Shown here in pieces: positions 1-14,513 of a DNA stretch of 64,000 nucleotides. The position numbers and the translations under genes were made by a program. The first letter of the stretch is position 1. Every line of letters starts with the position of its first letter. Under the pieces are notes generated by a model, which made no database searches, was not told where the DNA came from, and saw nothing but the letters and a program-made list of their open reading frames with translations. Where the stretch lies: contig CAVPCQ010000037.1 of the NCBI GenBank assembly GCA_963702425.1, positions 1 to 64,000 of the forward strand, given 5' to 3'. The DNA comes from an uncultured Acidobacteriota bacterium (GTDB lineage Bacteria > Acidobacteriota > Polarisedimenticolia > J045).

Positions 1-861
1 CCGCGGTCCGTGATCAGGTGTCGTGGCGCCTGCCCCGCGGCCCGGATCGAGCCGGCTAGGAAGGCGCTCATCGCCACGGCGGCGGGCCGGCCCCGGAAGA
101 CCCGGACGCCCATGATCCGGCGCGAGAAGTGGTCGATGCCGACGGCGACCCAGCAACAGAAAGGCCAGCGCTGGGGGACCGACCAGGGCAGCCACGAGAT
201 CCAGAAACCGGCGAGCGTCGGCACGGTGGTCAGGTCGACCAGCCAGATGTGATTCGGGCGCGACGATCGGATGCAGCGTTCGATCCGGACCGTCGCGGCA
301 GGCGCCACGCGACGGGGGCGGTACTTCAGCATCCGGCGGACGGTCGTCCGCCCGAGATGGAGCCCCGCGCGGGAGAGCACCGCCGCGATTCGCGCCGTCC
401 CCATCGCGGGGCACAGCACCTTCAAGCGCCGAACGATGTGCGCAACGAGGTCCGGGAACCTGTTCACGGGCTCGGGCGTCCGGACGAGCGCGGCAGGTCC
501 GTCCTCATCGAGCCGGGTCATCCAGTCGGCGATCGTGGCTTCCGTCACGAAGAACCGGCCGGCTGTCTGAAGCTGCCGACCAGCCGCGAGCCGCGCGGAG
601 TTCGAGAATCGCGAGTCGATCCACGGCGGGGTAATGCGGTCGGCGATGCGGCGGGACGCGCTCCAGGCGAGCGTCCTTGATGCGCAGCTCCTCGAGGAGC
701 AGGGCCAGCTCGTGCTCCAGGCGGACGGAGACGGCGACGCGATCGGTGGCCGCAAGCAGGGCGACCCGGGCCAGGGAGAGGGCGTGGACGATCGCGGAGC
801 GGGCGCGTCGGGGCCAACGCGGGGGGAGCAAGACGTCACCTCGCCAGTCCTCAGTAGACAT
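1..861 (-). mobile_element. HTH + integrase-core (rve/DDE) transposase, frameshifted near 570, running off the left edge
   Basis: ATG at 861 with GGAGG upstream. Reads MSTEDW...LRIKDARLERVPPHRRPHYPAVDRLAILELRAARGWSA, then after a 1-nt shift QTAGRFFVTEATIADWMTRLDEDGP...RPNHIWLVDLT...DHFSRRIMG...HLITDR, giving the first two acidic residues of an rve domain. Confidence 0.8.
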
Positions 862-973
862 GCCGGCCTCCCTGAACGCGGCCGCCCGAAGGCGCGCGCA
901 GAGAGGATAAGTTGTTAGGGGAGTAAGGGATGGCCCCGCGGACAGAGAGGCGGGCAGCCGCGCGTGCGGCGGC

Positions 974-1008
974 TTGCCGATCCCAACGGTATCATATAAG
1001 ATGATACC
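974..1008 (+). promoter_or_regulatory. Sigma70-like promoter (TTGCCG-N17-TAAGAT) overlapped by the perfect inverted repeat GGTATCAT-N5-ATGATACC (putative operator)
   Basis: -35 at 974-979, -10 at 997-1002, palindrome arms at 988-995 and 1001-1008; ATG at 1010. Confidence 0.65.
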
Positions 1009-1009
1009 C

Positions 1010-1549
1010 ATGAAACCGAAGGAGACGATCGCGCAGTTCGACCGATTCCTCGCTGCGGCGGGCGTGCGGCTCGAAGCGGTCGTGATCGGCGGCACGGCGA
1101 TGGCCCTGCTCGGCGTGACCTCGCGCCAGACGAAAGACTGCGACGTGCTCGCCCCGCCACTCCCGCCCGAAGTCGTCGACGCGGCGCGGCGATTCGCCGC
1201 AGCGGTTCGCCGGGCAGGCGATCCGCTGGCCGACGACTGGCTCAACAACGGCCCCTCGTCGCTCGTCGAGGCGCTGCCTCCCGGTTGGGAGGAGCGGCTG
1301 CAAATCGTCTTCAAGGGAACGGCCCTGACACTTCGCACCCTCGGGCGGTTGGACCTGCTCCGCAGCAAGCTCTTCGCGCTGTGCGATCGCGGTCTCGACC
1401 TGCCGGATTGCCTCGCCTTGGCACCGACCTCGGAGGAACTGAGCGAACTCCTTCCCTGGGTCTGTCAGCAGGATCTGAACCCCGACTGGCCGGAGCACGT
1501 ACGGGCGACCCTCGCCGATCTGGGACGGAGGCTCGGCCATGGCGTATAG
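1010..1549 (+). CDS. DUF6036-like / AbiEii-superfamily nucleotidyltransferase, putative toxin
   Basis: Pol-beta NTase motif IGGTAM...RQTKDCD plus C-terminal SKLFALCDRGLD (KLxA..R..D). Alternative start at 1001. Confidence 0.75.
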   Translation: MKPKETIAQFDRFLAAAGVRLEAVVIGGTAMALLGVTSRQTKDCDVLAPPLPPEVVDAARRFAAAVRRAGDPLADDWLNNGPSSLVEALPPGWEERLQIVFKGTALTLRTLGRLDLLRSKLFALCDRGLDLPDCLALAPTSEELSELLPWVCQQDLNPDWPEHVRATLADLGRRLGHGV

Positions 1550-2243
1550 CCGGACCGCCGAGAGCCGTGAGCTGTCCGAGGGGCGGAAGCTCGTCTCGGA
1601 CATGGCCGGGATCGGGATGCTCTTCGCGGCCCCGGCGTCGCGGGACCCCAACATCGAGGACACGCTCATCGCCGCCTCGGTGGAGGCGATGGACCGGGAC
1701 GATCTGCGCGTGGCGTCCGTGATGACGACCTGGCTCGGGATCCACCACCCGCGCCTCAACGCCGACCGGCTCGTCCGGGCGCTCACCGACCATCCGTCGA
1801 AGCGCGTCCTCGCGTACTGGACCGCCATTGGCCGATGGCTGCAGAAGGACGCCCGCCTGGCGCGTCTCGAGGGGCTCTATGGCGGACCGCAAGTGGAGCT
1901 GCTCCGATCCGGCACGGCGTTTCACGTGCGGCGGAAGGGGGAGGACCCCCGGTTTTGTCGCAGCCGGCTGCGCGTCTCCGCCGGGGTGCTTCGTGATCGA
2001 CCGGCCGACGTCATGTCGCCCAGCGAGCTAGCCCGGCGCCACGGCACGTATCGCCTGCGGATCGTGATCGGTCCGAGCTACCGCGCCGACATGTGGGCCG
2101 AGCTGGAGCGCGATCCGGAGCTGTCCGCCGCGGAACTCGCTCGCCGGGCCTACGGGTCGTTCGCGACGGCGTGGAAGGTCAGGCAGGACTGGGCGCTGAT
2201 CCACCCGGCGCTGCCGACAGCCAGAGGGCGGCCAGGCCACTGA
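1539..2243 (+). CDS. Uncharacterised protein with a C-terminal HTH-like segment, putative antitoxin/autoregulator
   Basis: Overlaps the NTase stop by 11 nt. C-terminal RADMWAELERDPELSAAELARRAYGSFATAWKV resembles a helix-turn-helix. Confidence 0.65.
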   Translation: MAYSRTAESRELSEGRKLVSDMAGIGMLFAAPASRDPNIEDTLIAASVEAMDRDDLRVASVMTTWLGIHHPRLNADRLVRALTDHPSKRVLAYWTAIGRWLQKDARLARLEGLYGGPQVELLRSGTAFHVRRKGEDPRFCRSRLRVSAGVLRDRPADVMSPSELARRHGTYRLRIVIGPSYRADMWAELERDPELSAAELARRAYGSFATAWKVRQDWALIHPALPTARGRPGH

Positions 2244-2679
2244 ACTGGCGGAGTGGCGGGGCGGAGGCGCTGAAGGGCGTCGCGGCCGGTTTGCGATGCG
2301 TGTCGAACGCGGAGCCAATCCTCCTCTTTTCGAACTTCGGGCGGGGCGGTTAACGGGGAAGGTGTGTCCGGGGGCGGCCGGGGGGCCGGATAGGCGCGAA
2401 GGGCGCGGGGAGGCACCGGACCGTCGCCAGGACCCGGCTCTCTGCAAGCCGACTCGCTCGGGGGCGGGCGAGGCTCCGGTCGTCGTTCGGGGTGGAGCGC
2501 TCTCTTGATCTCTGCGATCGTCGAGAGAGCCGTGCGCCGGCGCATTGCCCGTCTCCGTGCCGTCGGGGGTGAGGAGGCGAGGTCCACCCGGGAATGCGCA
2601 TTGCCGTTGTTCTCCTCGCAGAAATTCTTGCGCGGAATTGAGCTGAAATAGGTGGAGTAAGTGCCTCCTCCTCAGGCGG

Positions 2680-3140
2680 CCGGAGGGTCGCAGCGAGGAG
2701 GCAGGATGAGTGGAAGGCGGCAGGACGAAGGCGGATGGGACGAGGGCTCGGACCTGCAGGGGATCGAGCCCCTCGGGGTGTCGGAGGCCGGCGCGGAGGT
2801 TGAGGGGCCGGCGTCGACAAGGGTCGGGACGACGCGGGTGCGCTTCCGGTGCCGTAGGCGGCGCAGTGCGGGCTGCCCTTGCTCGATCCGCGGCGCTTGG
2901 CGGAGCCGGTCGCGCGCCTCAGGCGGGCGAGTTTCTCGCGGGTCCGGAGCGGTTGGGCGTAGCGGTCGGGCTCGCTCTGGCGGAGGATGTGCCGGGCCAT
3001 GACGACCAGCTTGCGCGCGGTGGCCACGACGGCGACGTTGCGGTCCTTCTTCCTGGCGAAGTTGCGGAAGAAGACCCCGAGCGGCCCGGGACGGGTGCCG
3101 AGGCGCTGAGCCGCCTGGACCAGCACCCAGCGCGCGCATC
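2680..3140 (-). mobile_element. IS110-family transposase C-terminal remnant (decayed; left boundary approximate)
   Basis: ARWVLVQAAQRLGTRPGPLGVFFRNFARKKDRNVAVVATARKLVVMARHILRQSEPDRYAQP is a typical IS110 C-terminus. The N-terminal DEDD domain is absent and the frame breaks downstream. Confidence 0.75.
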
Positions 3141-3152
3141 CGGAGCTCTGCT

Positions 3153-5021
3153 ATGACAATCGCATCCTCACGGTACGCGCTGCTCGCCCGGCTGGCCGAG
3201 CGCACCCTCGGCCGCGCCGCCGGCACCCTGGCGCTCGCCGCCGCGCTTCTCCTGCCGGCCTGCCGCTCAGCACCGCCGGGACCAGCGGCCGCCGCGCCTC
3301 CCGCGCGCGTCGCCGCGGACGGCGCGGCGCTCGATGCCGGACTCGTCGTCGCGCCGGAGCCGCGGGCTGCGCGGGTCGGTGCCGCGGTGCTCGCCGCCGG
3401 GGGGAACGCCATCGACGCCGCGGTCGCGACCCACCTCGCGCTGGCCGTCACCTTCCCCTACGCCGGCAACCTCGGCGGCGGCGGCTTCTGCGTCGTGCGC
3501 CAGCCGGACGGCGCGGTCCTCGCGCTCGACTTCCGCGAGACCGCGCCGGCCGCGGCCACGCGCGACATGTTCCTCGACGCGAACGGGGAAGTCGTTCCCG
3601 GGGCGAGCCTCTACACGCTGCGCGCAGCGGGGGTCCCGGGCTCGGTTGCGGGGCTGGCCGCGCTTCACGCCCGGGGCGGCGCGCTGGCCTGGGCCGACCT
3701 GTTCGCCCCCGCGATCGCGCTCGCCGCGGAGGGCTTCGCGCTCGATCCCTGGACCGCAGGCTCGTTCGCGGAGCGGGCCGAGGAACTCGCTTCCGACGCC
3801 CCTGCCGCGCTCCAGCCCGGCCTCAACTTCGCTCGCACGTTCCGGGGCTCCGCCGGCGAGACCTTCCGCCAGCCGGAGCTGGCCGCGACGCTGCGCCGGA
3901 TCGCTGCCGGCGGGCCGGACGAGTTCTACCGCGGGCGCACCGCGGAGCTCGTCGTCGACGCGATGCGCCGCGGCGGCGGACTGATCACGGCGGACGACCT
4001 GGCCGGCTACCGCGCGCTGTGGCGCGCTCCGGTCGAGGGGACCTACCGCGGGCACCGCGTGATCTCGATGCCGCCACCGTCGTCGGGCGGCGTGATGTTG
4101 ATCGAGCTGCTCAACATGCTCGAGGGGTTCGCCGTGCCCCCTCCCGGCAGCGCCGCGCAGGTCCACCTCTTCGCCGAGCTGGAGAAGCGGGCGTTCGCCG
4201 ACCGCGCGCGCTGGCTCGGCGACCCGGACCAGGTGCGGGTGCCGACCGCGCGCCTGGTCTCGAAGGACTACGCTCGCGCTCGCGCCGCGGGGATCAGCGA
4301 GGGTCGCCGGACCGACCCGGGGACGATCGCCGCCGGGGCTGCGGGCCCGGCCGAAGACGGGGAGACGCTCCACTTCAGCGTCGTCGACCGCGCGCGCCGC
4401 GCCGTCGCCTGCACGACCACGATCAACGACGCCTACGGGTCCGGGATCGTCGTCGAGGGGGCCGGCTTCCTGCTGAACAACGAGATGGACGACTTTGCCG
4501 CCAAGCCGGGTGCGCCGAACCTCTACGGCGTCGTCGGCGGCGCGGCGAACGCGATCGCCTCAGGCAAGCGGATGCTCTCCACGATGACGCCGACGATCGT
4601 CGAGCGGCCGGACGGGCAGGCCTGGCTCGTGCTGGGGAGCCCGGGTGGATCGACGATCGTCACGACCGTCTTCCAGGTCGTCTCGCACGTCGTCGACGGC
4701 GGGATGGCCCTGCCCGACGCCGTCGCCGCGCCGCGGGTCCATCACCAGTGGCCGCCGGCCGAGCCGGGGCGTGACGCGCTGCGCACCGAGCGCGATCCGC
4801 GCTTCGCGCTCCCCGCGACGGAGCTGGCGCTGCTCGCCGGGCAGGGCTACGCGATCGACGCGAAAGGGCCGCTCGGCAACGTGCAGGCGATCGCGATCGA
4901 GGGCCGGCGTGCCGCCGGTGCGCCCGACCCGCGCGGCATCGGCGCGGCGGCGGCGGAGCCGAAGGCCCGCGGGACCGCGCCCGAAGCGCCGCTCAGCGCG
5001 GCTCCGTCCACTCCACGCTGA
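3153..5021 (+). CDS. ggt: Gamma-glutamyltransferase (probable lipoprotein)
   Basis: GGNAIDAAVA, LDFRETAP, ETLHFSVVD (nucleophile Thr), LLNNEMDDF, GSPGGSTI; lipobox-like LLPAC. Confidence 0.93.
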   Translation: MTIASSRYALLARLAERTLGRAAGTLALAAALLLPACRSAPPGPAAAAPPARVAADGAALDAGLVVAPEPRAARVGAAVLAAGGNAIDAAVATHLALAVTFPYAGNLGGGGFCVVRQPDGAVLALDFRETAPAAATRDMFLDANGEVVPGASLYTLRAAGVPGSVAGLAALHARGGALAWADLFAPAIALAAEGFALDPWTAGSFAERAEELASDAPAALQPGLNFARTFRGSAGETFRQPELAATLRRIAAGGPDEFYRGRTAELVVDAMRRGGGLITADDLAGYRALWRAPVEGTYRGHRVISMPPPSSGGVMLIELLNMLEGFAVPPPGSAAQVHLFAELEKRAFADRARWLGDPDQVRVPTARLVSKDYARARAAGISEGRRTDPGTIAAGAAGPAEDGETLHFSVVDRARRAVACTTTINDAYGSGIVVEGAGFLLNNEMDDFAAKPGAPNLYGVVGGAANAIASGKRMLSTMTPTIVERPDGQAWLVLGSPGGSTIVTTVFQVVSHVVDGGMALPDAVAAPRVHHQWPPAEPGRDALRTERDPRFALPATELALLAGQGYAIDAKGPLGNVQAIAIEGRRAAGAPDPRGIGAAAAEPKARGTAPEAPLSAAPSTPR

Positions 5022-6083
5022 CCAGCTCGAGCCGTTCGCCGCGCGGCGGCGGCGCGAGCGTGAGCGCGAAGCGCGGGCCGTCCGGCCGCACGACGATCTC
5101 CCAGGCGTGGCGCCCCGGCGCGCTCATCGCGGCCGTCGTCGTCAGCCCGCTCCCCGCCTCGATCGTCGCCCCCTCGGCCCTCGCCGCGAGCGCGATCCCG
5201 GCCCGGCTCGCGCGCGCGAACGACAGCCGCAGCGCCGAGCGCCTGCCCCGCCTCCGCGCCATCCAGCTCGAGCCGCGCGACGAACCGCTGCGGCCCCGCG
5301 CCGAGCAGGCTCCCGAGCTGCTGGCTGATCCCGCTCTCCGCGCCGAGCCGGTCGAGCGCCGCCGCGCTCGCGGCGCGCAGCGCGCGCGGCTGGCGCGCGA
5401 GATCCCAGCGGATTCCGAGCGGGGTCGGGTCATCGCTCCCCGGGACACCGGTTCCGCCGATCCGGCGGATCGAGCCGGGGGTGTAGACCTCGCGCATCCG
5501 CGCGCCGTTGTCGACCGGCCGCCCGTCGCGGTCGCGGTCGAGCTGCCCTTCGAAGACGACCAGCCCGGCGAGCGCGGCCTCCGGGTCGGCGCGGATCTGC
5601 GTCCAGCGAGAGGACGCGCCCGTCGCGCACGAAGAACCCGGCATAGGTCACGTCGATGAAGTGCCACGCGCCATCCCAGTACGCCTGGGCACACGAGTGT
5701 CCGGCCCCCGGGCGCGGGAAGTCGTAGAGGTTGACCCGCTCCGCGGTGAGGCCGGCGGCGCGCGCCATCGAGCAGAAGAGGACCGAGCGGGGCCCGCACA
5801 GCCCGTGGAGCGGCAGCGCCTGCCCGGGAACCCTCCGGCGCGGATCGTTGGTCGTGTTCGCGACCACCCAGCGGGCGAGCGCCTCCGCCTTCGCGGCGTC
5901 GGTCATGCCGGGGCGCAGCGTCGCGAGCGCCTGCGCCGTCAAGCTGTCGGCCGCGTCCGGGCGCTCCGATCCGTAGCCGCGGCGGACCACCTCCGGTGCG
6001 CCCCAGGCGATCGCTGCGGCGGCGGCGAGGGCCGCGGCGAGCGCGAATCGGCGGCGGGGCGGGAATGGCGCGGTGGCCTCCAT
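4993..6083 (-). pseudogene. Exported transglutaminase-like (Cys-His-Asp) protein with two apparent 1-nt frameshifts (~5600, ~5235); possibly sequencing errors
   Basis: N-terminal hydrophobic segment, then HGLCGPRS...GHSCAQAYWDGAWHFIDVT (Cys, His, Asp). The reading continues across three frames to the stop at 4993. Confidence 0.6.
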
Positions 6084-6191
6084 GCCCGGTCGAACGTAGG
6101 GCCGCCCCCGCCCCGCGGGCCAAGTCACGCCCCTCCGCGCCGCGGCTCGCCCGGTTGCGGTAACCTCTCCCGCCGCTTCCCGGAGGCTCCC

Positions 6192-7508
6192 GTGTCCGAA
6201 CCCCGTCTCTCCCCGGTTCCCGAGGACCGGCCCGTGCTCGTCGTCCGCCCCGGCGAGTTGGCGGGCCTCGATGAGAGCCCGAAGACGATGGCCGCGATCC
6301 CCGGCAGCCGGATGTTCGAGATTCGCGACGCGCTCGCCGTCTTCGAGCGCGACCAGCCGGGGCGCGACCAGTTCGACGCCAGCCAGGGGGACGGCGGCGC
6401 CAGCCTGCCCGGCGTGCCGGAGGAGCTGCTCGACGCCGCGCACGCGCTGCAGAAGGAGCACGGGACCGGCTACGACCAGCCGTTCGGCACGAACCTGTTC
6501 CGCAAGGTGATCGCCGAGCAGTACTGGGGACTCGACGCCGCGACCGGTTGGGGCCCCGAGAACGTCGTGGCCTGCCAGGGGGGGCGCGACGCGCTCCTCA
6601 AGGCCTACGAAGCGATGCAGTTCCTCGGGATGAGACGGCGCGGCGACTTCGTCGTCGTCAGCCGCGTCCCGTGGATCTCCTACAACTGGGGACCCTACGC
6701 GGTCGGCGCCAACGTGCTGCTCGCGCCGGGACGCGAGGCCGACGCCTGGGCGCTGACGGCGGAGGGGATCGCCGAGACGGTGCGCGAGGCGGAGCGTCGC
6801 GGCCGCGGCGTCGCCGGCCTGGTTCTCACCAGCCCCGACAACCCGACCGGCCGTACGACCCCGCTCGACGCGCAGCGCGCGCTGGCCCGCGCCGCGTTCG
6901 CGGCCGGGATCCCGTTCGTCCTCTTCGACTGGATCTACCACCGCGTCGGCGATGAGCCGCCGCACGACCTCAACGCCTTCCTCGCGCCGCTGACGCCGGC
7001 CGAGCGCGACCGTTGCATGATCCTCGACGGGATCACCAAGTCGCTCGGCGCCAGCAACGTCCGCAACGCGCACCTGGTGGTCGGCAAGGCGGTCGCGAAG
7101 TTCGTCTCCGCGCGGGCCTCGCACGGTGTCATCCCGTCGTTCCACAGCACCGCGGTGGCGATCGCCGCGACGAGGATGGGCTTCGACCGCGCCGCCGCGC
7201 CGATCGTCGGCCCGACCAACGCCAGCCGGAAGGTCCTGCGGCGCTTTCTCGAGGCGAAGGGGCTGCGGCACATCCTCGGCCAGGGCTACTACGCCTTCAT
7301 CGACGTCGGGCCGTTCATGGACCGGGCCGGGATGGCCGACTCGGCCGCGATGGGGACGTACCTCGGCGAGCGCCACGGCCTGGCCGTCGTCCCCGGCGTC
7401 TACTTCAGCGACTTCGGCGCGCGCTGGATCCGCTTCTCCTACGCGCTGCCGCCCGAGACGACGACCCGCGCCGCGGACCGGCTCTGGGAGGCGCTCTCCG
7501 CGCTATGA
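6192..7508 (+). CDS. PLP-dependent aminotransferase class I/II
   Basis: GTG start after GGAGG; SPDNPTG, FDWIY, DGITKSLG (PLP Lys), WIRFSYA. Confidence 0.88.
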   Translation: MSEPRLSPVPEDRPVLVVRPGELAGLDESPKTMAAIPGSRMFEIRDALAVFERDQPGRDQFDASQGDGGASLPGVPEELLDAAHALQKEHGTGYDQPFGTNLFRKVIAEQYWGLDAATGWGPENVVACQGGRDALLKAYEAMQFLGMRRRGDFVVVSRVPWISYNWGPYAVGANVLLAPGREADAWALTAEGIAETVREAERRGRGVAGLVLTSPDNPTGRTTPLDAQRALARAAFAAGIPFVLFDWIYHRVGDEPPHDLNAFLAPLTPAERDRCMILDGITKSLGASNVRNAHLVVGKAVAKFVSARASHGVIPSFHSTAVAIAATRMGFDRAAAPIVGPTNASRKVLRRFLEAKGLRHILGQGYYAFIDVGPFMDRAGMADSAAMGTYLGERHGLAVVPGVYFSDFGARWIRFSYALPPETTTRAADRLWEALSAL

Positions 7509-10336
7509 CACCGGTCGACTGGGGGCGCTTCGCGGAGAAGGTCCAGCTCGCGCTGGAGTCGTCGCTCGAGAGCCAGTACGAGCGCGGCACCTCGGGGCTG
7601 GAGGTCGAGTTCAACCTGCTCGACGCCGCGCTGCGGCCGCTCGGGCGGGTCGGCTTCGGCCCGGAGAGCCGCTCGTTCGCCGACCTGCTGCTCGAGGATC
7701 GGCTGCCGACCTGGCTGCGCAGCCGGACCCAGCTCGAGGTCTTCCACTGGATGATCGAGACCGCCACGCGCCCGTACTACTCGCCGCTCGGCGCGGCCTG
7801 GGAGGCGAAGGTCGTCGAAGGGGCGCTGGCCAACCTGCTGGCCGAGACCGGACTGTCGCTCGGCGAGCGGTTCTACGCGCTGCACGGCAACCTGCCGCGC
7901 GAGGTCGCGCCCGGCGAGGACAGCATCCCCGACGGTTGGAGCCTGGCCAAGAAGCGCTACCTGGCGCGCTGTGTCGCGCTGTTCGGCGGCCGGCTGGCAA
8001 CCGCCGGGATCCACACCAACCACTCGCTCCCGGAATCGCTGCTGGCCTGGGACTTCTTCCACCTGCCGCCCGCCGCGCGCCGCGCGCAGAGCCTCGAACA
8101 GTTCCGCAGCGAGGCGATGATCCGCGCCACGCGCCTGCTGCGCCCCTACTGCGCGCTCTTCATCGCCACCTCGGCCGCCTCGCCGCTGGCCTCCGAGCGG
8201 GTCGACGGGGTCGAGGAGATCGTCCTGACGCCGCTCGACTCGAACCGCCTGCTGACCTTTCCCAATCCCGAAGCGCTCGACGTCCCGTTCCTCTACGCCT
8301 CGCACAAGGACTACCTGTCGATCTCCGAGAGCCTGGTCCGGCGCGGCGTGCGCTTCGGCAGCAACAACTGGACCCCGGTCCGGGCCCGCTCGGACGTCGA
8401 TCCCGTCAACCGGATCCTCGGCACGACCTCCGAGCAGCTACGCGAGCTCTACCGGCGCGGGATCTTCTCGCCCGGCGAGCACGCCAGCCTGGAGGACGCG
8501 GAGCGCGCGCTGATCGTCGAGAACCTGGTCGCGCTGGTCGACCTGCCGATGACGCGCGTCGAGGTCCGCACCGACGAGGGGGGCGACGACCTGGACCTCG
8601 CGGTGGCGAAGGTCGTCTTCAAGGAGTTGCTGCTCTACCGGATCTACGCCGACCCCGGGTTCGGCGCCGACACCGCCTACGACTCGGCCGGCCTCGCGCG
8701 GGCCCGGGCCAACGAGGACGCGGCTGCGCACCGCGGGCTCGACGCGACACTCGAGCACCCGTTCGACGGCGGCCCGGTCGGCGCGCGCGCGTGGCTGGCG
8801 GCGACGCTCGACGAACTCGCCCCGCTGGCTGCGGCGCTCGAGCGGCGGCCGCTGCTGGAACCGCTCGCGGCGATGGCGGGCGGCGCACCCAACCCGGCCG
8901 GGGCGATGCGGGCCTGGCTGGGTGAGCGCAGCGCGGGGGAGCGGATCGCCCCCTCCGGGCGTCGCGTCGTCCCGCCCGCATTGCTCAAGGAGTGGTGCGA
9001 GGAGCGGCGGCGCCGGCTCGCAGCCGACGTCGCGACGATCGTCGCCCGCCCGCGCGCGCTCGGCGTCGAGGCCGCGAAGCTGGCCGAGGTGCTGGAGCCG
9101 CTCGAGGCGTGGGGCCGGCGCAACCCCTCACTGCCGGTTCGCCCGGCGGCGCCGGCCGCACCGCCCGCAATCGAGCTGGACGGCAGCCGGCGCGCCGAGG
9201 TGCTCGCGCTGTCGTCGGCGCTGGTGCGGATCCCCTCGGTGACGAACTGCGCCGCCGAGCGGCTCGACGAGGTGCTGCGCTGCGCGCGTTTCATCGGCGC
9301 GACGCTCGCCGAGGCCGGGCTCGAGGTGCGGGTCTGGGACACCGAGAAGTACCCCGCGGTGCTGGCCGGATTCCCGGGCGGTCTGCTCGCGCCGGTCACC
9401 CTCTCGGGGCACTTCGACGTCGTCGAGCCCGAGCCGGGGGACGTGCAGTTCGAGCCCTACGTCGAAGGGGACTACCTGTGGGGACGGGGCGCGGCCGACA
9501 TGAAGACCGTGGTCGCCAGCGACGTCGTCTGGATGCGGCGACGCCGCGCGGCGGGGCCGCCCTACCCGCCGGTCAATCTGCTGCTCGTCGGCAACGAGGA
9601 GAACGGCGAGACCGAGGCCTACGGCACGCCGCAGGTCCTGCACGATCTCCGGCGCGACGCGCACTGGTCGCCGGAGTTCATGGCGATGGGGGAGCGGACG
9701 GGCGAGCGCGGGGACGAGCGCTTCGGCCAGGTCTGCGTCGAGAACCGTGGCGTCGTGCGGCTGCGGCTGGTCGCGAAAGGGGAACGCGCGCATACCGGAT
9801 TCGCCGCGCGGCCGACCGACCTGCTCGCGCTGCTGGTCGAGGCGCGGCAGCGGCTGGGCGCGATGCTGCCACGCTACCTGACGCTCGAGGCCGCGGGGCC
9901 GTGGAAGAGCTCGGCCGTCTTCCCGTTCCTCGAGGTCGGGCAGAAGGGGGTCTACAACATCACCCCCGACGAGGGGGTGCTCGGGCTCGAGATCCGGCCG
10001 GTTCCCGGGGACGACGTCGCGGCGCTGACGGCTGCGACCGAGGAACTCTGCAACGAGCTCGGGCTCGCGCTGGTGCGCGAGGTCGTCGAAGGGGGCGTGG
10101 CCTGCCCGCCGGGGAACCCCCACCTCAACCGGCTGCTCGCCGCGGTCGAGCGGTCCTCGGGGGCGCCGGCCGAGGTCGGGCGGAAGCTGGCCGGCACCTC
10201 GGCCCGCTTCGCGCCCGGCGGCGCCGCCGTCGTCTGGGGCCAGTCGGGGATCGGGCCCCACTCGCGGGCCGAGCGCCACTTCATCCCGAGCATCGAGCCC
10301 TACCTGGACGTGCTCGACGCCTGGTTCCCGCGCTGA
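7505..10336 (+). CDS. Fusion of a glutamate--cysteine-ligase-like (GCS2/carboxylate-amine ligase) domain and an M20 (ArgE/DapE-like) metallo-amidohydrolase
   Basis: ATGA overlap with the aminotransferase. N-half GLEVEFN, MIETAT, AGIHTNH, RVEVRTDE. C-half GHFDVV, GRGAADMK, GNEENG, GERTG, GPHS. One continuous 943-aa frame. Confidence 0.8.
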   Translation: MTPVDWGRFAEKVQLALESSLESQYERGTSGLEVEFNLLDAALRPLGRVGFGPESRSFADLLLEDRLPTWLRSRTQLEVFHWMIETATRPYYSPLGAAWEAKVVEGALANLLAETGLSLGERFYALHGNLPREVAPGEDSIPDGWSLAKKRYLARCVALFGGRLATAGIHTNHSLPESLLAWDFFHLPPAARRAQSLEQFRSEAMIRATRLLRPYCALFIATSAASPLASERVDGVEEIVLTPLDSNRLLTFPNPEALDVPFLYASHKDYLSISESLVRRGVRFGSNNWTPVRARSDVDPVNRILGTTSEQLRELYRRGIFSPGEHASLEDAERALIVENLVALVDLPMTRVEVRTDEGGDDLDLAVAKVVFKELLLYRIYADPGFGADTAYDSAGLARARANEDAAAHRGLDATLEHPFDGGPVGARAWLAATLDELAPLAAALERRPLLEPLAAMAGGAPNPAGAMRAWLGERSAGERIAPSGRRVVPPALLKEWCEERRRRLAADVATIVARPRALGVEAAKLAEVLEPLEAWGRRNPSLPVRPAAPAAPPAIELDGSRRAEVLALSSALVRIPSVTNCAAERLDEVLRCARFIGATLAEAGLEVRVWDTEKYPAVLAGFPGGLLAPVTLSGHFDVVEPEPGDVQFEPYVEGDYLWGRGAADMKTVVASDVVWMRRRRAAGPPYPPVNLLLVGNEENGETEAYGTPQVLHDLRRDAHWSPEFMAMGERTGERGDERFGQVCVENRGVVRLRLVAKGERAHTGFAARPTDLLALLVEARQRLGAMLPRYLTLEAAGPWKSSAVFPFLEVGQKGVYNITPDEGVLGLEIRPVPGDDVAALTAATEELCNELGLALVREVVEGGVACPPGNPHLNRLLAAVERSSGAPAEVGRKLAGTSARFAPGGAAVVWGQSGIGPHSRAERHFIPSIEPYLDVLDAWFPR

Positions 10337-10459
10337 CCGCGGCGCCCTGGGTAGGCCCGGCAAACAAACTCAGGTAACGACGCTTTTTCGTAAGTAAGTC
10401 TGCAGGGCCCTGTCCTACACTCGGTTCGGCGCACCCCCCCCGCGCCAAGCGAGATCCCC

Positions 10460-12172
10460 ATGCAGAGGGTCCATCACGACGTCCTGATCCTGGGCGCCGG
10501 CTTGGCCGGCCTGCGGGCGGCGGTCGAGATCTCCCGCCGCCTGCCCGGCAAGGTCGACATCGGCATCGTTTCCAAGGTGCAGCTCATGCGCGCCCACTCG
10601 GTCTGCGCCGAGGGGGGGACGGCCGCGGTCTTGCGCACCGACGAGGGGGACAACCTCGAGTTGCACGCCTGGGACACGGTGAAGGGGTCGGACTTCCTGG
10701 CCGACCAGGACGTGGTCCGGCGCTTCGTCGAGGCGATGCCGCGCGAGATCTGGCAGCTCGACCACTGGGGGATCCCGTGGACGCGCGACGCCGCCGGCCG
10801 GATCGATCAGCGGCCGTTCGGCGGCCACTCCTACCCGCGCGCCACGCTGGCCGCGGACAAGACCGGCTTCTTCGAGATGCAGACGCTCTACGACACGCTG
10901 CTCAAGTACCGGAGCTTCGCGCGCTACGACGAGCTGTTCATCACCGAGATCGTAGTCGAGGACGGACGCTTCGCCGGGCTGGTCGGGATCCACGCGCCGA
11001 GCGGGGAGACGATCCTGCTCTCCGGCAAGGCGCTGCTGATCGCCTCGGGCGGCGGCGGCACCCTCTACGGCTTCACGACCTACTCGCAGACGGTGACCGG
11101 CGACGGGATGGCGATGGCCTTCCGCGCCGGCCTGCCGCTGGAGGACATGGAGTTCCTGCAGTTCCACCCGACCGGCCTCGTTCCCTCCGGGATCCTGATG
11201 ACCGAGGGCTGCCGCGGGGAAGGGGGCTACCTCAAGAACGTCAAGGGCGAGCGGTTCATGAGCGAGTACGCCGCCTCGAAGATGGAACTCGCCCCGCGCG
11301 ACATGGTCTCGCGCGCCGAGATGACCGAGATCGAGGCCGGCCGCGGCTTCCCGCACCCGAGCGGCCTCGAGTACCTCGAGCTGGACCTGACCCACCTCGG
11401 AGCGGATCAGATCAACAAGCGGCTGCCGCTGATCCGCGAGGTGGCGATCAAGTTCGTCGACATCGACCCGATCACGAAGGCGATCCCGATCCGCCCGGTG
11501 GCGCACTACTCGATGGGCGGGATCGAGACCGACATCAAGGGGGCGACGCGCGTGCCCGGGATCTGGGCCGCGGGCGAGGCGGCCTGCGTCTCGCTGCACG
11601 GCGCCAACCGGCTCGGCTCGAACTCGACCGCCGAGTGCCTGGTCTGGGGCGGGATCGCCGGGGGCGAGATCGCGGACCAGCTGGCCGGACTGAGGTCGGC
11701 GCCCGCCGTGTCGGACAGGCGGCTGGCGGAGGCCGAGGCGCGGCTGAGCGAGCCGCTCGAGCGCAAGGGGGACGAGGACCTCTACGCGCTGCGCCACGAG
11801 CTGCGCGCGACGATGGACCGCGACGTCGGCGTCTTCCGCACGGGCGAGCAGCTCGCGAGCGCGCTCCGGGTGGTCCGCTCGATCAAGGAGCGGGCGCGCC
11901 GCGCGCCGGTCAGGGACCGGGTGAAGGTCTACAACTCGAACCTCTTCCACGCCTTCGAGCTGGACAACCTGGCCCTCCTGGCGGAGGTCACGGTGATGGG
12001 GGCGCTGGCCCGGGAGGAGTCGCGCGGGGCCCATGCGCGGCGCGACTTCCCGACGCGTGACGACGAGAAGTGGCTCAAGCATACGCTGGCCTTCGAGACC
12101 GGCGCCGCGCCGCGCCTCGACACCAAGCCGGTGACGGCCGACATGTGGAAACCGGTCGAGCGGAAGTACTGA
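10460..12172 (+). CDS. sdhA: Succinate dehydrogenase/fumarate reductase flavoprotein subunit
   Basis: GAGLAG, RAHSVCAEGG (FAD His), QFHPTG, ELAPRD, HYSMGG, HGANRLGSNS, ESRGAH. Confidence 0.96.
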   Translation: MQRVHHDVLILGAGLAGLRAAVEISRRLPGKVDIGIVSKVQLMRAHSVCAEGGTAAVLRTDEGDNLELHAWDTVKGSDFLADQDVVRRFVEAMPREIWQLDHWGIPWTRDAAGRIDQRPFGGHSYPRATLAADKTGFFEMQTLYDTLLKYRSFARYDELFITEIVVEDGRFAGLVGIHAPSGETILLSGKALLIASGGGGTLYGFTTYSQTVTGDGMAMAFRAGLPLEDMEFLQFHPTGLVPSGILMTEGCRGEGGYLKNVKGERFMSEYAASKMELAPRDMVSRAEMTEIEAGRGFPHPSGLEYLELDLTHLGADQINKRLPLIREVAIKFVDIDPITKAIPIRPVAHYSMGGIETDIKGATRVPGIWAAGEAACVSLHGANRLGSNSTAECLVWGGIAGGEIADQLAGLRSAPAVSDRRLAEAEARLSEPLERKGDEDLYALRHELRATMDRDVGVFRTGEQLASALRVVRSIKERARRAPVRDRVKVYNSNLFHAFELDNLALLAEVTVMGALAREESRGAHARRDFPTRDDEKWLKHTLAFETGAAPRLDTKPVTADMWKPVERKY

Positions 12173-12186
12173 GCGGGAGAACGGCG

Positions 12187-12627
12187 ATGACGAACGGGAC
12201 TTCGCAACCGAACCATCTCGGAATCTGGGGCTGGCTGGGCGGCGGGCGCTGGGGTTGGGAGCGCTACCTCTACACGCTGCAGCGGCTGTCCGGGCTGGCG
12301 CTCCTCCTCTACTTCGTCCTGCACATCATGGTCACCTCCTCGCGGGCCTTCGGCGAATCGGCGTGGGCGAAGGCGATGGGGGCGGTGACCGGGCCGCTGT
12401 TCACCATCGGCGAGTACCTGGTCTTCGCGGCCTTCGCCTACCACGCGGCGAACGGGCTGCGGCTGGTCGTCGTCGAGCTGGGGTGGGGAGTCGGCCGGCC
12501 GATCGAGCCGATCTACCCGTACAAGACCTCGGTCGACGGCCAGAAGCCGTGGGCGCTGCTCGCGATGGCGGCCGCCGGGGTGCTGCTGGTCTGGGGCGCG
12601 GTCGACTTCTTCGTGATCCACAACTGA
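12187..12627 (+). CDS. sdhC: Succinate dehydrogenase cytochrome b subunit
   Basis: Three TM helices; LQRLSG, VLHIM, YHAANGLR; operon position. Confidence 0.88.
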   Translation: MTNGTSQPNHLGIWGWLGGGRWGWERYLYTLQRLSGLALLLYFVLHIMVTSSRAFGESAWAKAMGAVTGPLFTIGEYLVFAAFAYHAANGLRLVVVELGWGVGRPIEPIYPYKTSVDGQKPWALLAMAAAGVLLVWGAVDFFVIHN

Positions 12628-12644
12628 GCGAGGCGGGTGACGCG

Positions 12645-13025
12645 ATGAAAGAGCGCGGACTCTGGTTCCTCTTCCTGACGGCGGGCCTGGTGGTGCTGCC
12701 GCTGCTGGCCCTGCACATGGCCGTGATGCACCTCGACGGCACGCTCGCCGTCGGCAACCCCGCGGGCGGCCACCCCGTCGACTGGGCCAACGTCGTGGCC
12801 CGCGGCCGCTCCGCGGCCTTCGCCTTCACCTACCCGCTGCTGCTCGGGGCCGCGCTGTTCCACGGCTTCTACGGGCTGCGCTCGATCCTCTTCGAGCTCG
12901 GCCCGGCGGCGGGCCTCAAGAAGGCGATCAGCACACTCCTGCTGCTGGCCGGGCTGGCGCTGTTCGTCTACGGCAGCTGGGCCGCGATCGTCGCCCACAA
13001 CGCTGCGCTGCGGGGGACGCCATGA
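12645..13025 (+). CDS. sdhD: Succinate dehydrogenase membrane anchor subunit
   Basis: Three TM helices; LALHM, FHGFYGLR; operon position. Confidence 0.85.
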   Translation: MKERGLWFLFLTAGLVVLPLLALHMAVMHLDGTLAVGNPAGGHPVDWANVVARGRSAAFAFTYPLLLGAALFHGFYGLRSILFELGPAAGLKKAISTLLLLAGLALFVYGSWAAIVAHNAALRGTP

Positions 13026-13843
13026 GCGCGACGACGACGGTCACCTTCCGCGTGCGGCGCTTCACGCCGGGCGTCGATCCGGCGCCGCGCTGGCAGGACT
13101 ACACCTTCGAGGTCGAGTCCGGGCTGACCGTCCTCGACGGCCTGTGGCGGATCAAGGAGCAGCACGAGCCGGGCCTCGCCTGGCGCTTCTCCTGCCGGAT
13201 GGGAATCTGCGGCTCGTGCGGGATGATGATCAACGGTCGGCCGCGCCTGGCCTGCAACACGCAGATCGCGGAGCTGGAGTCGAGCCTGGTCACGGTCGCG
13301 CCGCTCCCGAACTTCGCCATCCTGCGCGACCTGGTCCCCGACCTGCAGTCGATGTTCGCCTCGCATCGCGCGCTCGCCCCCTGGATCATCCGCGACGACG
13401 GGACCGAGAGCGAGCAGCCGACCGCCGAGTACTGGCAGTCGCCGCACGAGCTCGAGCAGTACCTGCAGTTCTCCTATTGCATCAAGTGCGGCTGCTGCAT
13501 GGCCGCCTGCCCGACGCTGGCGACCGACCCGGCCTACTCCGGCCCGCAGCCGCTGGCCCAGGCCCACCGCTACAACACCGACACGCGCGATGCCGGGTTC
13601 GGCGCGCGCCGCGCGGTCCTGTCGGGCGAGGCCGGGCCGTGGGGCTGCCACTTCGCAGGGGAGTGCTCGCAGGTCTGCCCCAAGGGGGTCGACCCGGCTC
13701 GCGCGATCCAACTGATGAAGCGCCAGCTCGTGCTCGATCTGCTCCACCTGCGGCGCGGACACACCCCGGCGCCGCTGGCGACGATCCCGAAGGAGTTCAA
13801 GCGGCGCGAGGGGGTTCCCGACGCGCCGCCCCGGACGCTCTGA
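13022..13843 (+). CDS. sdhB: Succinate dehydrogenase Fe-S subunit
   Basis: SCRMGICGSC..LAC, CIKCGCC..CP, CHFAGECSQVCP. Confidence 0.95.
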   Translation: MSATTTVTFRVRRFTPGVDPAPRWQDYTFEVESGLTVLDGLWRIKEQHEPGLAWRFSCRMGICGSCGMMINGRPRLACNTQIAELESSLVTVAPLPNFAILRDLVPDLQSMFASHRALAPWIIRDDGTESEQPTAEYWQSPHELEQYLQFSYCIKCGCCMAACPTLATDPAYSGPQPLAQAHRYNTDTRDAGFGARRAVLSGEAGPWGCHFAGECSQVCPKGVDPARAIQLMKRQLVLDLLHLRRGHTPAPLATIPKEFKRREGVPDAPPRTL

Positions 13844-13877
13844 GCGGCCGGCCTTGTGGCGTGAGGTTGCCGCGGCC

Positions 13878-14513
13878 TCAGAAGCGGAAGCCGAGCATCA
13901 GCGGAATGTACTGCGTCGAGCCCCCGTCGTTGTCGACCCAGTGGTAGCGCGCCTCGATGTAGAACTCCGAGGCCCGGGACAGCGGGAAGTAGACGCCGCC
14001 GCCGGCGTTCAGGCCCCAGGCACCGTCGCTGTAGCTGCCGACGACCCTGTCCACCGGGACCAGGACCGGGTAGCAGATCCCCCACCACGGGTCGCAGATC
14101 GTGACGAGCCCGGCGCTCGGATCGGTCAGTTGGAGCTCGCGCTCGTAGTAGCCGACGCCGCCGATCAGGTAGTAGCCCCAGGTGCGTGAGACCCGCCGGT
14201 TCCACTCGAGGTTCGCGGTGATCGACCAGACGCTCGCGTTGGCGCCGCCGACCTTGAACTGATCCAGGATCTCGCTCTTGGGGTCGAACTCGTTCCACTG
14301 GAACTCGAAGCGCAGCCCGACCGGCCACTGCTCCGGCGCGTAGCGCAGGCCGGCCGCAAAGGCGATGTTGCCGCTGACCTTGTCGGCTGCCGTGCCGAGC
14401 GGCCAGCTGTAGCCGAGAGCGAAGTTCCCGCCCCACGGGGACTGCGCGGCGGCGGTGCCGACGCCGAGGCAGGCGAGGGCCATCGCGGTGACGAGGATGC
14501 GCTTGACGGTCAT
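13878..14513 (-). CDS. Outer-membrane beta-barrel protein (OmpA/OmpW-like)
   Basis: Signal peptide, alternating beta strands, C-terminal LGFRF; Cys pair in a loop (ICDPWWGICY). Confidence 0.8.
   Translation of the reverse strand: MTVKRILVTAMALACLGVGTAAAQSPWGGNFALGYSWPLGTAADKVSGNIAFAAGLRYAPEQWPVGLRFEFQWNEFDPKSEILDQFKVGGANASVWSITANLEWNRRVSRTWGYYLIGGVGYYERELQLTDPSAGLVTICDPWWGICYPVLVPVDRVVGSYSDGAWGLNAGGGVYFPLSRASEFYIEARYHWVDNDGGSTQYIPLMLGFRF

Follow-up and report, generated by a model that had tools for sequence, protein, structure and literature searches.

The first 64,000 nucleotides of contig CAVPCQ010000037.1 from the assembly GCA_963702425.1 of an uncultured Acidobacteriota bacterium, referred to below as the window, have an overall G+C content of approximately 72% and carry two overlapping genes that together encode three predicted enzymes: a class I aminotransferase, and a fusion protein in which a ligase of the glutamate-cysteine-ligase fold is joined to a metallohydrolase of the M20 family (Table 1). 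The aminotransferase gene opens with a GTG codon at 6192 and closes with TGA at 7506–7508, sharing the tetranucleotide ATGA with the ATG at 7505 from which the fusion is read. Motifs resembling a Shine-Dalgarno sequence precede both starts, with GGGAGG at 7486–7491 upstream of the fusion start. The G+C content at third codon positions (GC3) ranges from 0.84 to 0.98 in one single frame across 7501–10500, the inter-domain stretch included, with no sign of a frameshift that might have merged two genes; the 943-residue open reading frame (ORF) is therefore a single gene. The initial annotation of the locus had proposed just such a fusion ORF overlapping an aminotransferase gene by ATGA, and coordinates, translations, GC3 and domain assignments all agree with it.

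Table 1. Positions of the cassette and of neighbouring features in the window
Feature	Positions	Strand	Basis
rve-type integrase gene fragment	3..839	-	HTH_32 and rve, both below the Pfam cut-off
Gamma-glutamyltranspeptidase gene	3153..5021	+	PF01019, E 1e-149
Spacer ORF, 199 aa	5060..5659	+	coding-like GC3, no Pfam match
Spacer ORF, 81 aa	5731..5976	+	coding-like GC3, no Pfam match
GGAGG motif resembling a ribosome-binding site, 5 nt upstream of the aminotransferase start	6182..6186	+	sequence reading
Class I pyridoxal phosphate (PLP) aminotransferase, subgroup Ib, aspartate aminotransferase (AspAT)-like, 438 aa	6192..7508	+	translation, PF00155, structural relatives, invariant PLP site
ATGA overlap, translational coupling	7505..7508	+	sequence reading
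Fusion gene: ligase domain, linker and M20 hydrolase domain, 943 aa	7505..10336	+	translation, continuous frame, homologues, AlphaFold2 (AF2) model
Glutamate-cysteine-ligase-fold carboxylate-amine ligase domain, residues 1-545	7505..9139	+	AF2, Foldseek, invariant residues
Pro/Ala-rich inter-domain linker, residues 541-561	9125..9187	+	coil in full-length model; weakly conserved alignment columns
DapE/ArgE-type M20 metallohydrolase domain with inserted lid (dimerisation) domain, residues 562-943	9188..10333	+	PF01546, solved chains, invariant residues
Succinate dehydrogenase/fumarate reductase flavoprotein gene, 256-aa ORF, Fe-S subunit gene	10460..13843	+	

Folds and active sites of the three enzymes

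The AF2 model of the N-terminal domain reached a predicted local distance difference test (pLDDT) value of 85.2 and a predicted template modelling score (pTM) of 0.88. In a Foldseek search it matched GshA from Francisella (3nzt) and E. coli (1v4g), the GshA half of GshF (3ln6) and YbdK (1r8g) with E values of about 1e-10, a probability of 1.00 and template modelling (TM) scores of about 0.55, while PafA/Dop and the glutamine synthetases ranked lower in the list. As judged from this model, the domain clearly belongs to the glutamate-cysteine-ligase fold despite marginal sequence similarity. A profile of 22 relatives found YbdK as its sole sequence match in the PDB, at an E value of 1e-4, and the NCBIfam model gshA_cyano (TIGR02048) matched partially, with 39.4 bits vs a cut-off of 249. 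The separate ligase of a distant split form of the system, described below, scored 25.3 bits vs a cut-off of 21 for the GCS2-type Pfam model, and a look-up of residues 1–545 in the ESM Atlas returned GCS2 and Glu_cys_ligase among the nearest clusters. The family is a narrow one, as a profile search among 1.84 billion representatives yielded 203 clusters at E ≤ 0.001, among which fragments are numerous. The domain thus shares with E. coli-type GshA, the N-domain of GshF and YbdK/GCS2 the predicted fold, the metal-binding acidic residues, the GxHxNxSLP motif and the RxExR strand, but differs from them in its weak resemblance at sequence level, its restricted family, its fusion to a hydrolase and the lack of an accompanying glutathione synthetase. 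Among the nearest clusters in the ESM Atlas there were also two unnamed ones from Nucleocytoviricota, with proteins of about 470 residues and scores of 0.92–0.93, and these are possible giant-virus relatives of the cassette ligase fold.

The C-terminal half of the fusion was recognised by the Pfam model Peptidase_M20 (PF01546) over residues 633–936, with an E value of 3.6e-13 and 50.3 bits vs a cut-off of 24.6, and PF07687 (M20_dimer) was detected in the split-form proteins. Its closest solved chain is 2rb7, an uncharacterised M20 protein (E 3.8e-18), followed by DapE (4o23). The nearest models are those of the deacylases DapE, ArgE and LysK, with DapE models scoring best; the equivalog cut-offs were nevertheless missed widely, with 67.6 vs 284 bits for DapE (PRK13009) and 24.7 vs 363 bits for LysK (PRK04443). 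Enzymes of this subfamily carry out the deprotecting step in pathways that proceed through N-acyl-protected amino acids.

In an alignment of 28 fusion relatives, the ligase residues E33xE35, E78, H170 and R351xE353xR355 are invariant, and so are H636xD638, D665, E698-E699, E730 and H919 of the M20 domain together with H763 of its lid. The M20 residues align to the motifs GHTDVV, GRGAADMK, DEEG and GEPT of DapE 4o23, and the lid histidine aligns to GHIAY of DapE. Each of the catalytic positions named in the initial annotation (ExE, E, H and RxExR in the ligase; HxD, D, EE, E and H in the hydrolase) is thus kept in all 28 relatives, and the concern voiced there that the ligase domain might be inactive is countered, as far as residues can tell, by the retention of its predicted catalytic set. 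In the full-length AF2 model (pLDDT 84.7, pTM 0.82) the linker between the domains is modelled as coil, and its sequence varies among the aligned relatives. With such a pTM value, the two domains could be held in a fixed arrangement.

The aminotransferase was identified by Pfam Aminotran_1_2 (PF00155) with an E value of 4.4e-24, and its closest solved relatives are the AspATs 1j32 and 1bkg and the prephenate aminotransferase 5wmh, all of subgroup Ib. It missed the cut-offs of all named equivalogs, GntC being the best with 74 vs 415 bits and the AspAT models reaching 56–61 vs 550–617 bits. The PLP-site residues N217, D246, Y249, K283, R291 and R414 do not vary among 24 relatives and align to those of 1j32 and 1bkg. 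Also invariant is R132, in the motif GGRDAL, which aligns to the lysine of GGKQAL in Thermus AspAT (1bkg), a residue that we take to be the binder of the distal carboxylate. Since the alpha-carboxylate arginine R414 is kept and R132 is invariant, the enzyme fits an acidic, carboxylate-rich substrate. The alignment further contains two unusual invariant motifs, FDASQGDGGASLPG and SRVPWISYNWGPY.

Conservation and spread of the gene pair

A word-seeded protein search, in which 8000 candidates were scored, yielded 1515 homologues of the fusion at E ≤ 0.001. The 120 best of them cover 98–100% of the query at 58–91% identity, and 118 of these 120 have a length of 931–983 residues. Among species-representative genomes we obtained 592 pattern matches, 267 of which encode a relative; 78 loci were kept, which derive from metagenome-assembled genomes of Acidobacteriota (labelled Thermoanaerobaculia and Aminicenantes) and Chloroflexota (Anaerolineales). 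The two halves of the fusion are found in one uninterrupted frame at 69 of the 78 loci, are cut by a contig end at 6 and are separated by a frame break at 3. Together with the full-length size of the best homologues, this removes the suspicion that the fusion might be an assembly artefact. In the three frame-broken genes (L039, L063 and L068), tblastn returned two pieces each.

An orthologue of the aminotransferase, 53–93% identical, is located upstream of the fusion on the same strand at 69 of the 78 loci, and at each of the remaining 9 less than 1.9 kb of upstream DNA is available. At these 69 loci the two genes lie at most 50 nt apart in 20 cases, 51–300 nt in 22, 301–1000 nt in 12 and more than 1 kb in 15. 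In a sample of 301 genomes of the window's phylum, where the fusion was scored at E ≤ 1e-30 and the aminotransferase orthologue at E ≤ 1e-90, both genes occur in an identical set of 33 genomes, on the same contig and adjacent to each other. The other 268 genomes, among them G374 and G477 (flagged as unpublished), have neither. The aminotransferase is hence retained beside homologues of the fusion, contrary to the refuting outcome that the initial annotation had envisaged. The cassette is under strong purifying selection, with identities between the phyla of 48–58% for the fusion and 53–60% for the aminotransferase.

The association goes beyond adjacency. Two proteins, P0021 (1391 residues) and P0038 (1380 residues), occur naturally as triple fusions that run from the aminotransferase through the ligase to the M20 hydrolase. 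Upstream open frames of 1348–1439 residues in G587, G416 and G452 were considered as further triple fusions and rejected, as the aminotransferase there has a frame of its own. A search with a single distant stand-alone ligase, P0136, gave 4 metagenome loci, three of which were examined; these three (3/4), from a distant low-GC lineage, contain separate adjacent genes in the order ligase, aminotransferase, M20 hydrolase. The cassette accordingly consists of three enzymes with intact catalytic sites that are inherited strictly as a unit and joined in every pairing that nature has attempted.

No third gene and no small carrier gene is conserved with the cassette, as evidenced by the clustering of ORFs of at least 90 residues in the 78 loci and of ORFs of at least 40 residues in the gaps between aminotransferase and fusion at 27 loci, and in this respect the cassette is self-contained. 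Next in size come clusters for a histidine phosphatase (22 loci), MgsA (19) and a HAD hydrolase (11), which reflect local synteny within the Anaerolineales. Genes inserted into the gaps (WD40, GSDH, glycosyltransferase and NUDIX) are unrelated to each other and lineage-specific. In Acidobacteriota the cassette stands next to pheS/pheT, recG, peptidase and similar genes, and its neighbours are thus unrelated housekeeping genes.

The distribution is patchy and centres on two families of the window's phylum, with a few Chloroflexota in addition. The 33 carriers in the window's phylum include 17 of 20 genomes of family f30, 1 of 3 of f21 and 14 genomes of f40, and in a Chloroflexota sample the fusion was present in 7 of 301 genomes. 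It was lacking from all four further genomes sampled in the window's own family (0/4), and from every listed genome of its class. A quick maximum-likelihood tree of the fusions, for which the careful search is unfinished and the root arbitrary, separates two deep clades with a Shimodaira-Hasegawa-like approximate likelihood ratio (SH-aLRT) support of 100. One contains the window and 12 other proteins from the word-seeded search, the few named ones of which are labelled Acidobacteriota, Thermoanaerobaculales or Aminicenantes; the other combines the Aminicenantes-labelled L015 and its close relative L017 (record label Eubacteriales) with all 13 Chloroflexota sequences. It looks as if the cassette moves horizontally and is then kept.

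An integrase gene fragment is present at the very start of the window (Table 1), and the G+C content is 0.75–0.77 across 3–7 kb vs about 0.70–0.71 further downstream. Considered alongside the lack of the cassette in the four family relatives, these observations hint at an acquired island.

Possible roles of the cassette

Two reactions form the basis for our interpretation: GshA-fold ligases join the gamma-carboxyl group of glutamate to the alpha-amine of an amino acid, and M20 enzymes of the DapE/ArgE/LysK type cleave N-alpha-acyl amino acids. A bond maker fused to a bond breaker is sensible only if a change takes place in between, and the obvious candidate for that change is the aminotransferase; its assignment to the middle step follows from the split operon, where its gene is in the middle. 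In the mechanism that we put forward, the GshA-fold domain would form, at the expense of ATP, an amide bond between the alpha-amino group of an amino-acid-type substrate and a carboxylate, for which the gamma-carboxyl of glutamate is the most likely candidate. The AspAT-like aminotransferase would then convert an alpha-keto-acid/alpha-amino-acid centre elsewhere on the N-acylated intermediate, and the DapE/ArgE-type M20 domain would finally take the acyl group off again. We infer from the enzyme families a common N-acyl-amino-acid-type intermediate for all three, as well as the order of the steps, the glutamate donor and the nature of the substrate. The split-form gene order matches the proposed reaction order. 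Our tentatively preferred explanation, to which we grant somewhat less than an even chance, is a cassette of two genes and three enzymes, self-contained and horizontally mobile, in which a gamma-glutamyl-type amide is attached, the substrate transaminated and the amide removed. The cassette in any case points to a short metabolic route that is so far undescribed. The initial annotation had offered either a protect-transaminate-deprotect pathway or a make/break switch, a chemistry that the domains may suggest; of this, the notion of one pathway is backed by the triple fusions and the split operon, whereas the diaminopimelate and the carrier-free aminoadipate versions did not gain support.

Several points weigh against the proposed mechanism. 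No known substrate fits its logic. Tetrahydrodipicolinate is the only common metabolite that requires an acylate-modify-deacylate sequence with an alpha-keto-acid aminotransferase, and at E ≤ 1e-10 DapB was not found in 19 of 32 genomes with the cassette. Against an aminoadipate version, LysX is present above cut-off in 14 of 27 such genomes and LysK in 13 of 27, and a homocitrate-synthase-like gene (E ≤ 1e-60) is present in 9 of 24 and absent from 15. Regarding the ligase, the search for a combined GCS2 and Peptidase_M20 architecture suggested in the initial annotation located the M20 part, and PF04107 is precomputed for 113 of the 120 best fusion homologues, but on the 943-residue protein of the window GCS2 gave no match at E 0.01. 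An hhalign comparison with E. coli GshA covered 31 columns only, with a probability of 6%; within this short alignment of low probability, AGIHTNHSLP falls on GVHYNFSLP of GshA, so that H170 corresponds to His150, and Y152 corresponds to Tyr131. Glutamate is only the presumed acyl donor, and in the common form of the cassette the aminotransferase gene comes first, so that collinearity with the reaction order is inconsistent.

The three activities make a very good formal match to lysine biosynthesis, and among the curated models the M20 domain comes closest to those of DapE. In such a variant, gamma-glutamyl would replace the succinyl group of the DapD/DapC/DapE route to diaminopimelate, or free glutamate would replace the LysW carrier. 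The genome of the window, however, has a canonical succinylase-type diaminopimelate route of its own, a dapA-dapD-class I aminotransferase operon with adjoining dapB at G000:C6:250005-253725 (minus strand), separate from the cassette, in which DapD reaches 259 bits vs a cut-off of 204; DapL above cut-off and Ddh were not detected there. DapB was found in the remaining 13 of the 32 cassette genomes, 3 above cut-off and 10 of family f40 just below it, and G001–G004 have no DapD, DapL, Ddh or DapB. In G002, a complete LysW cluster is present in the order homocitrate synthase (HCS), HacAB, HICDH, LysX, LysW, LysX, LysY, LysZ, LysJ, with LysK just beyond. Conversely, neither DapB nor LysX nor a homocitrate-synthase-like gene was found in G001, G003, G008 and G012, and the record of G001 is titled as a whole chromosome. 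As the cassette coexists with every lysine genotype, its function lies elsewhere. The diaminopimelate variant was rejected because the window's genome has the complete route and many carriers have no DapB, and the carrier-free aminoadipate variant because LysX and LysK are already present in about half of the genomes and the homocitrate-synthase-like gene is missing in most; a variant lysine route is largely refuted by the phyletic data, and we consider it barely credible. Note that the cluster of G002 belongs to locus L099 (G002:C10:182000-201900) of an Anaerolineales genome with the cassette, and is a combined lysine/arginine LysW-type cluster that also holds argG and argH.

A different role for the same enzymes would be an ATP-driven ratchet for transamination. 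Here the ligase would make gamma-glutamyl-X, which is glutamine if X is ammonia, and the alpha-amino group of the glutamyl moiety would be the donor for the aminotransferase. The M20 domain would then split the resulting 2-oxoglutaramyl-X into 2-oxoglutarate and X, and X would go back to the fused ligase, for a net and irreversible conversion of glutamate, a keto acid and ATP to 2-oxoglutarate and an amino acid. The fusion of an amide maker to an amide breaker is sensible if the released amine is handed back, and an AspAT-like aminotransferase is built for glutamate-like donors. Universal metabolites would suffice, in line with the patchy, transfer-like spread and with genomes in which few biosynthetic markers were found. 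The acyl group removed by DapE is succinyl, which 2-oxoglutaryl resembles. There is a precedent in the pairing of a class I glutamine transaminase with an amidase that renders transamination irreversible by destroying the amide keto-acid product, named the ketoglutaramate ratchet in PMC6302742. The omega-amidases described there are of the nitrilase family, however, with no fused ligase and with glutamine provided by glutamine synthetase, and no example with an M20 amidase or a GshA-fold ligase is known. We also cannot name a benefit for a particular amino acid, and the conserved lid domain of the M20 enzyme suggests, on the alignment, an amino-acid leaving group and not ammonia. We see such a ratchet as rather unlikely. 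Its strictest form, a closed cycle in which the amine is returned straight from the M20 domain to the ligase at a cost of one ATP per irreversible transamination, as a portable fused ratchet assembled from unrelated families, appears a shade more doubtful still.

The conserved equivalents of His150 and Tyr131 in a GshA fold could also point to a system that makes a gamma-glutamyl dipeptide, for instance a low-molecular-weight thiol such as gamma-Glu-Cys or an osmolyte, and turns it over itself, in the manner of a make/break switch. The aminotransferase would supply the amino acid, the ligase build the dipeptide and the M20 domain degrade it or a precursor dipeptide; Cys-Gly dipeptidases do exist among M20 enzymes. 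A gamma-glutamyltranspeptidase gene is found 1.1 kb upstream of the cassette in the window and in its two nearest relatives. This neighbour occurs at no more than 2 of the 78 loci, however, and glutathione synthetase GshB (TIGR01380) was above cut-off in none of 27 cassette genomes. Without regulation, a fused enzyme that both makes and hydrolyses one bond would waste ATP in a futile cycle, and the supply of a common amino acid leaves both the strict coupling to the aminotransferase and the triple fusions unexplained. We consider a dipeptide of this type quite improbable. Glutathione synthesis as such was rejected on the lack of GshB and of any second GCS2 match in the window's genome. According to PMC12817896, His-150 is one of the residues of gamma-glutamylcysteine synthetase (gamma-GCS) that bind Mg and glutamate, and Tyr-131 is one of those that bind cysteine.

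Amidotransferases are typically fusions of a hydrolase with a synthetase, and the full-length model of the fusion is one compact two-domain body (pTM 0.82). By analogy, the M20 domain might act on an N-acyl or dipeptide donor and free its amino acid or ammonia, which the ligase would capture on an ATP-activated carboxylate, while the aminotransferase would make or consume one of the partners. Such an amine relay is without precedent in the M20 and GshA-fold families and leaves the role of the aminotransferase vague, and we assign it a very small probability.

Returning to the preferred mechanism of protection, transamination and deprotection, the proposed logic is that of DapD/DapC/DapE, of ArgA to ArgE and of LysX to LysK, with free glutamate and ATP as the protecting reagent. 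With DapD/DapC/DapE it would share N-acylation, the class I transamination of an alpha-keto acid (in some bacteria) and deacylation by an M20 enzyme, but acylation there is due to a CoA-dependent hexapeptide transferase and in the cassette to an ATP-dependent GshA-fold ligase; moreover, the cassette occurs both in genomes without detected DapB and beside a complete Dap route. The LysW pathways (LysX/ArgX, LysJ, LysK) likewise use ATP to protect an amine on the gamma-carboxyl of a glutamate, and proceed through transamination to release by an M20 enzyme. Their glutamate, however, is the C-terminus of a carrier protein, their ligase is of the ATP-grasp type, their aminotransferase is of class III, and they include a kinase and a reductase step in between; the surroundings of the cassette contain no conserved carrier gene, and genuine LysW, LysX, LysZ, LysY, LysJ and LysK coexist with it in Anaerolineales. 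In the Puu/Pau polyamine pathways, ATP-dependent gamma-glutamylation provides a temporary handle that a hydrolase removes at the end, with ligases of the glutamine-synthetase type, oxidase and dehydrogenase steps and a hydrolase of the glutamine-amidotransferase type. To our knowledge, these pathways have no aminotransferase of the cassette type, and nothing in them is fused.

We found no description of the fusion or the cassette in the full-text literature, whose coverage does not extend to subscription-only papers, and source annotations list the fusion as 'succinyl-diaminopimelate desuccinylase' or 'M20 family metallo-hydrolase'. New here are the identical sets of 33 genomes, the gene order of the split operon and the patchiness of the distribution, and likewise that roles in the synthesis of lysine, diaminopimelate or glutathione have been rejected. 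The cassette is present in hundreds of uncultured species without a characterised member. Identification of its substrate would add either a protecting-group pathway that runs on free glutamate and ATP, possibly a small-molecule counterpart of the LysW carrier systems, or a new drive for transamination. In both cases the current annotation would be put right, and metabolic models would improve for bacteria of the Aminicenantes, Thermoanaerobaculia and Anaerolineales types, frequent inhabitants of sediments, groundwater and digesters. With two genes, the cassette is compact and should be readily testable by heterologous expression.

Surroundings of the cassette

The gamma-glutamyltranspeptidase gene of the window is on the same strand as the cassette, and as a neighbour recurs solely in the nearest relatives L001 and L002. 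The 1.1-kb spacer holds two ORFs (Table 1), and the one of 199 residues was matched in L001 and L002 only. Directly downstream of the cassette, a gene for a flavoprotein of the succinate dehydrogenase/fumarate reductase type, an unassigned 256-residue ORF and a gene for an Fe-S subunit are followed by an outer-membrane beta-barrel gene on the minus strand; none of the downstream genes is conserved beside the cassette elsewhere. At gathering thresholds, Rfam models detected tRNAs only and no riboswitch in 8 loci, and they gave no match at E ≤ 0.1 in positions 1–14000 of the window. A scan of 2900–10700 for promoters and terminators returned no promoter-like site and a single terminator-like site, located on the minus strand, which is not above the level of shuffled sequences.

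A general link to asparagine synthetase was considered and rejected, as genuine copies occur in 11 of the 301 sampled genomes and in 0 of the 33 with the cassette. In two unrelated lineages, nevertheless, a gene for an AsnRS-like asparagine synthetase A (AsnA, NF005054) is situated directly upstream of the cassette, at 5653–6609 in L007 and at 2243–3181 in L113. The two proteins score 370 and 386 bits, respectively, vs a cut-off of 309 and are 47% identical to each other, and in L007 a B12/radical-SAM gene precedes that of AsnA.

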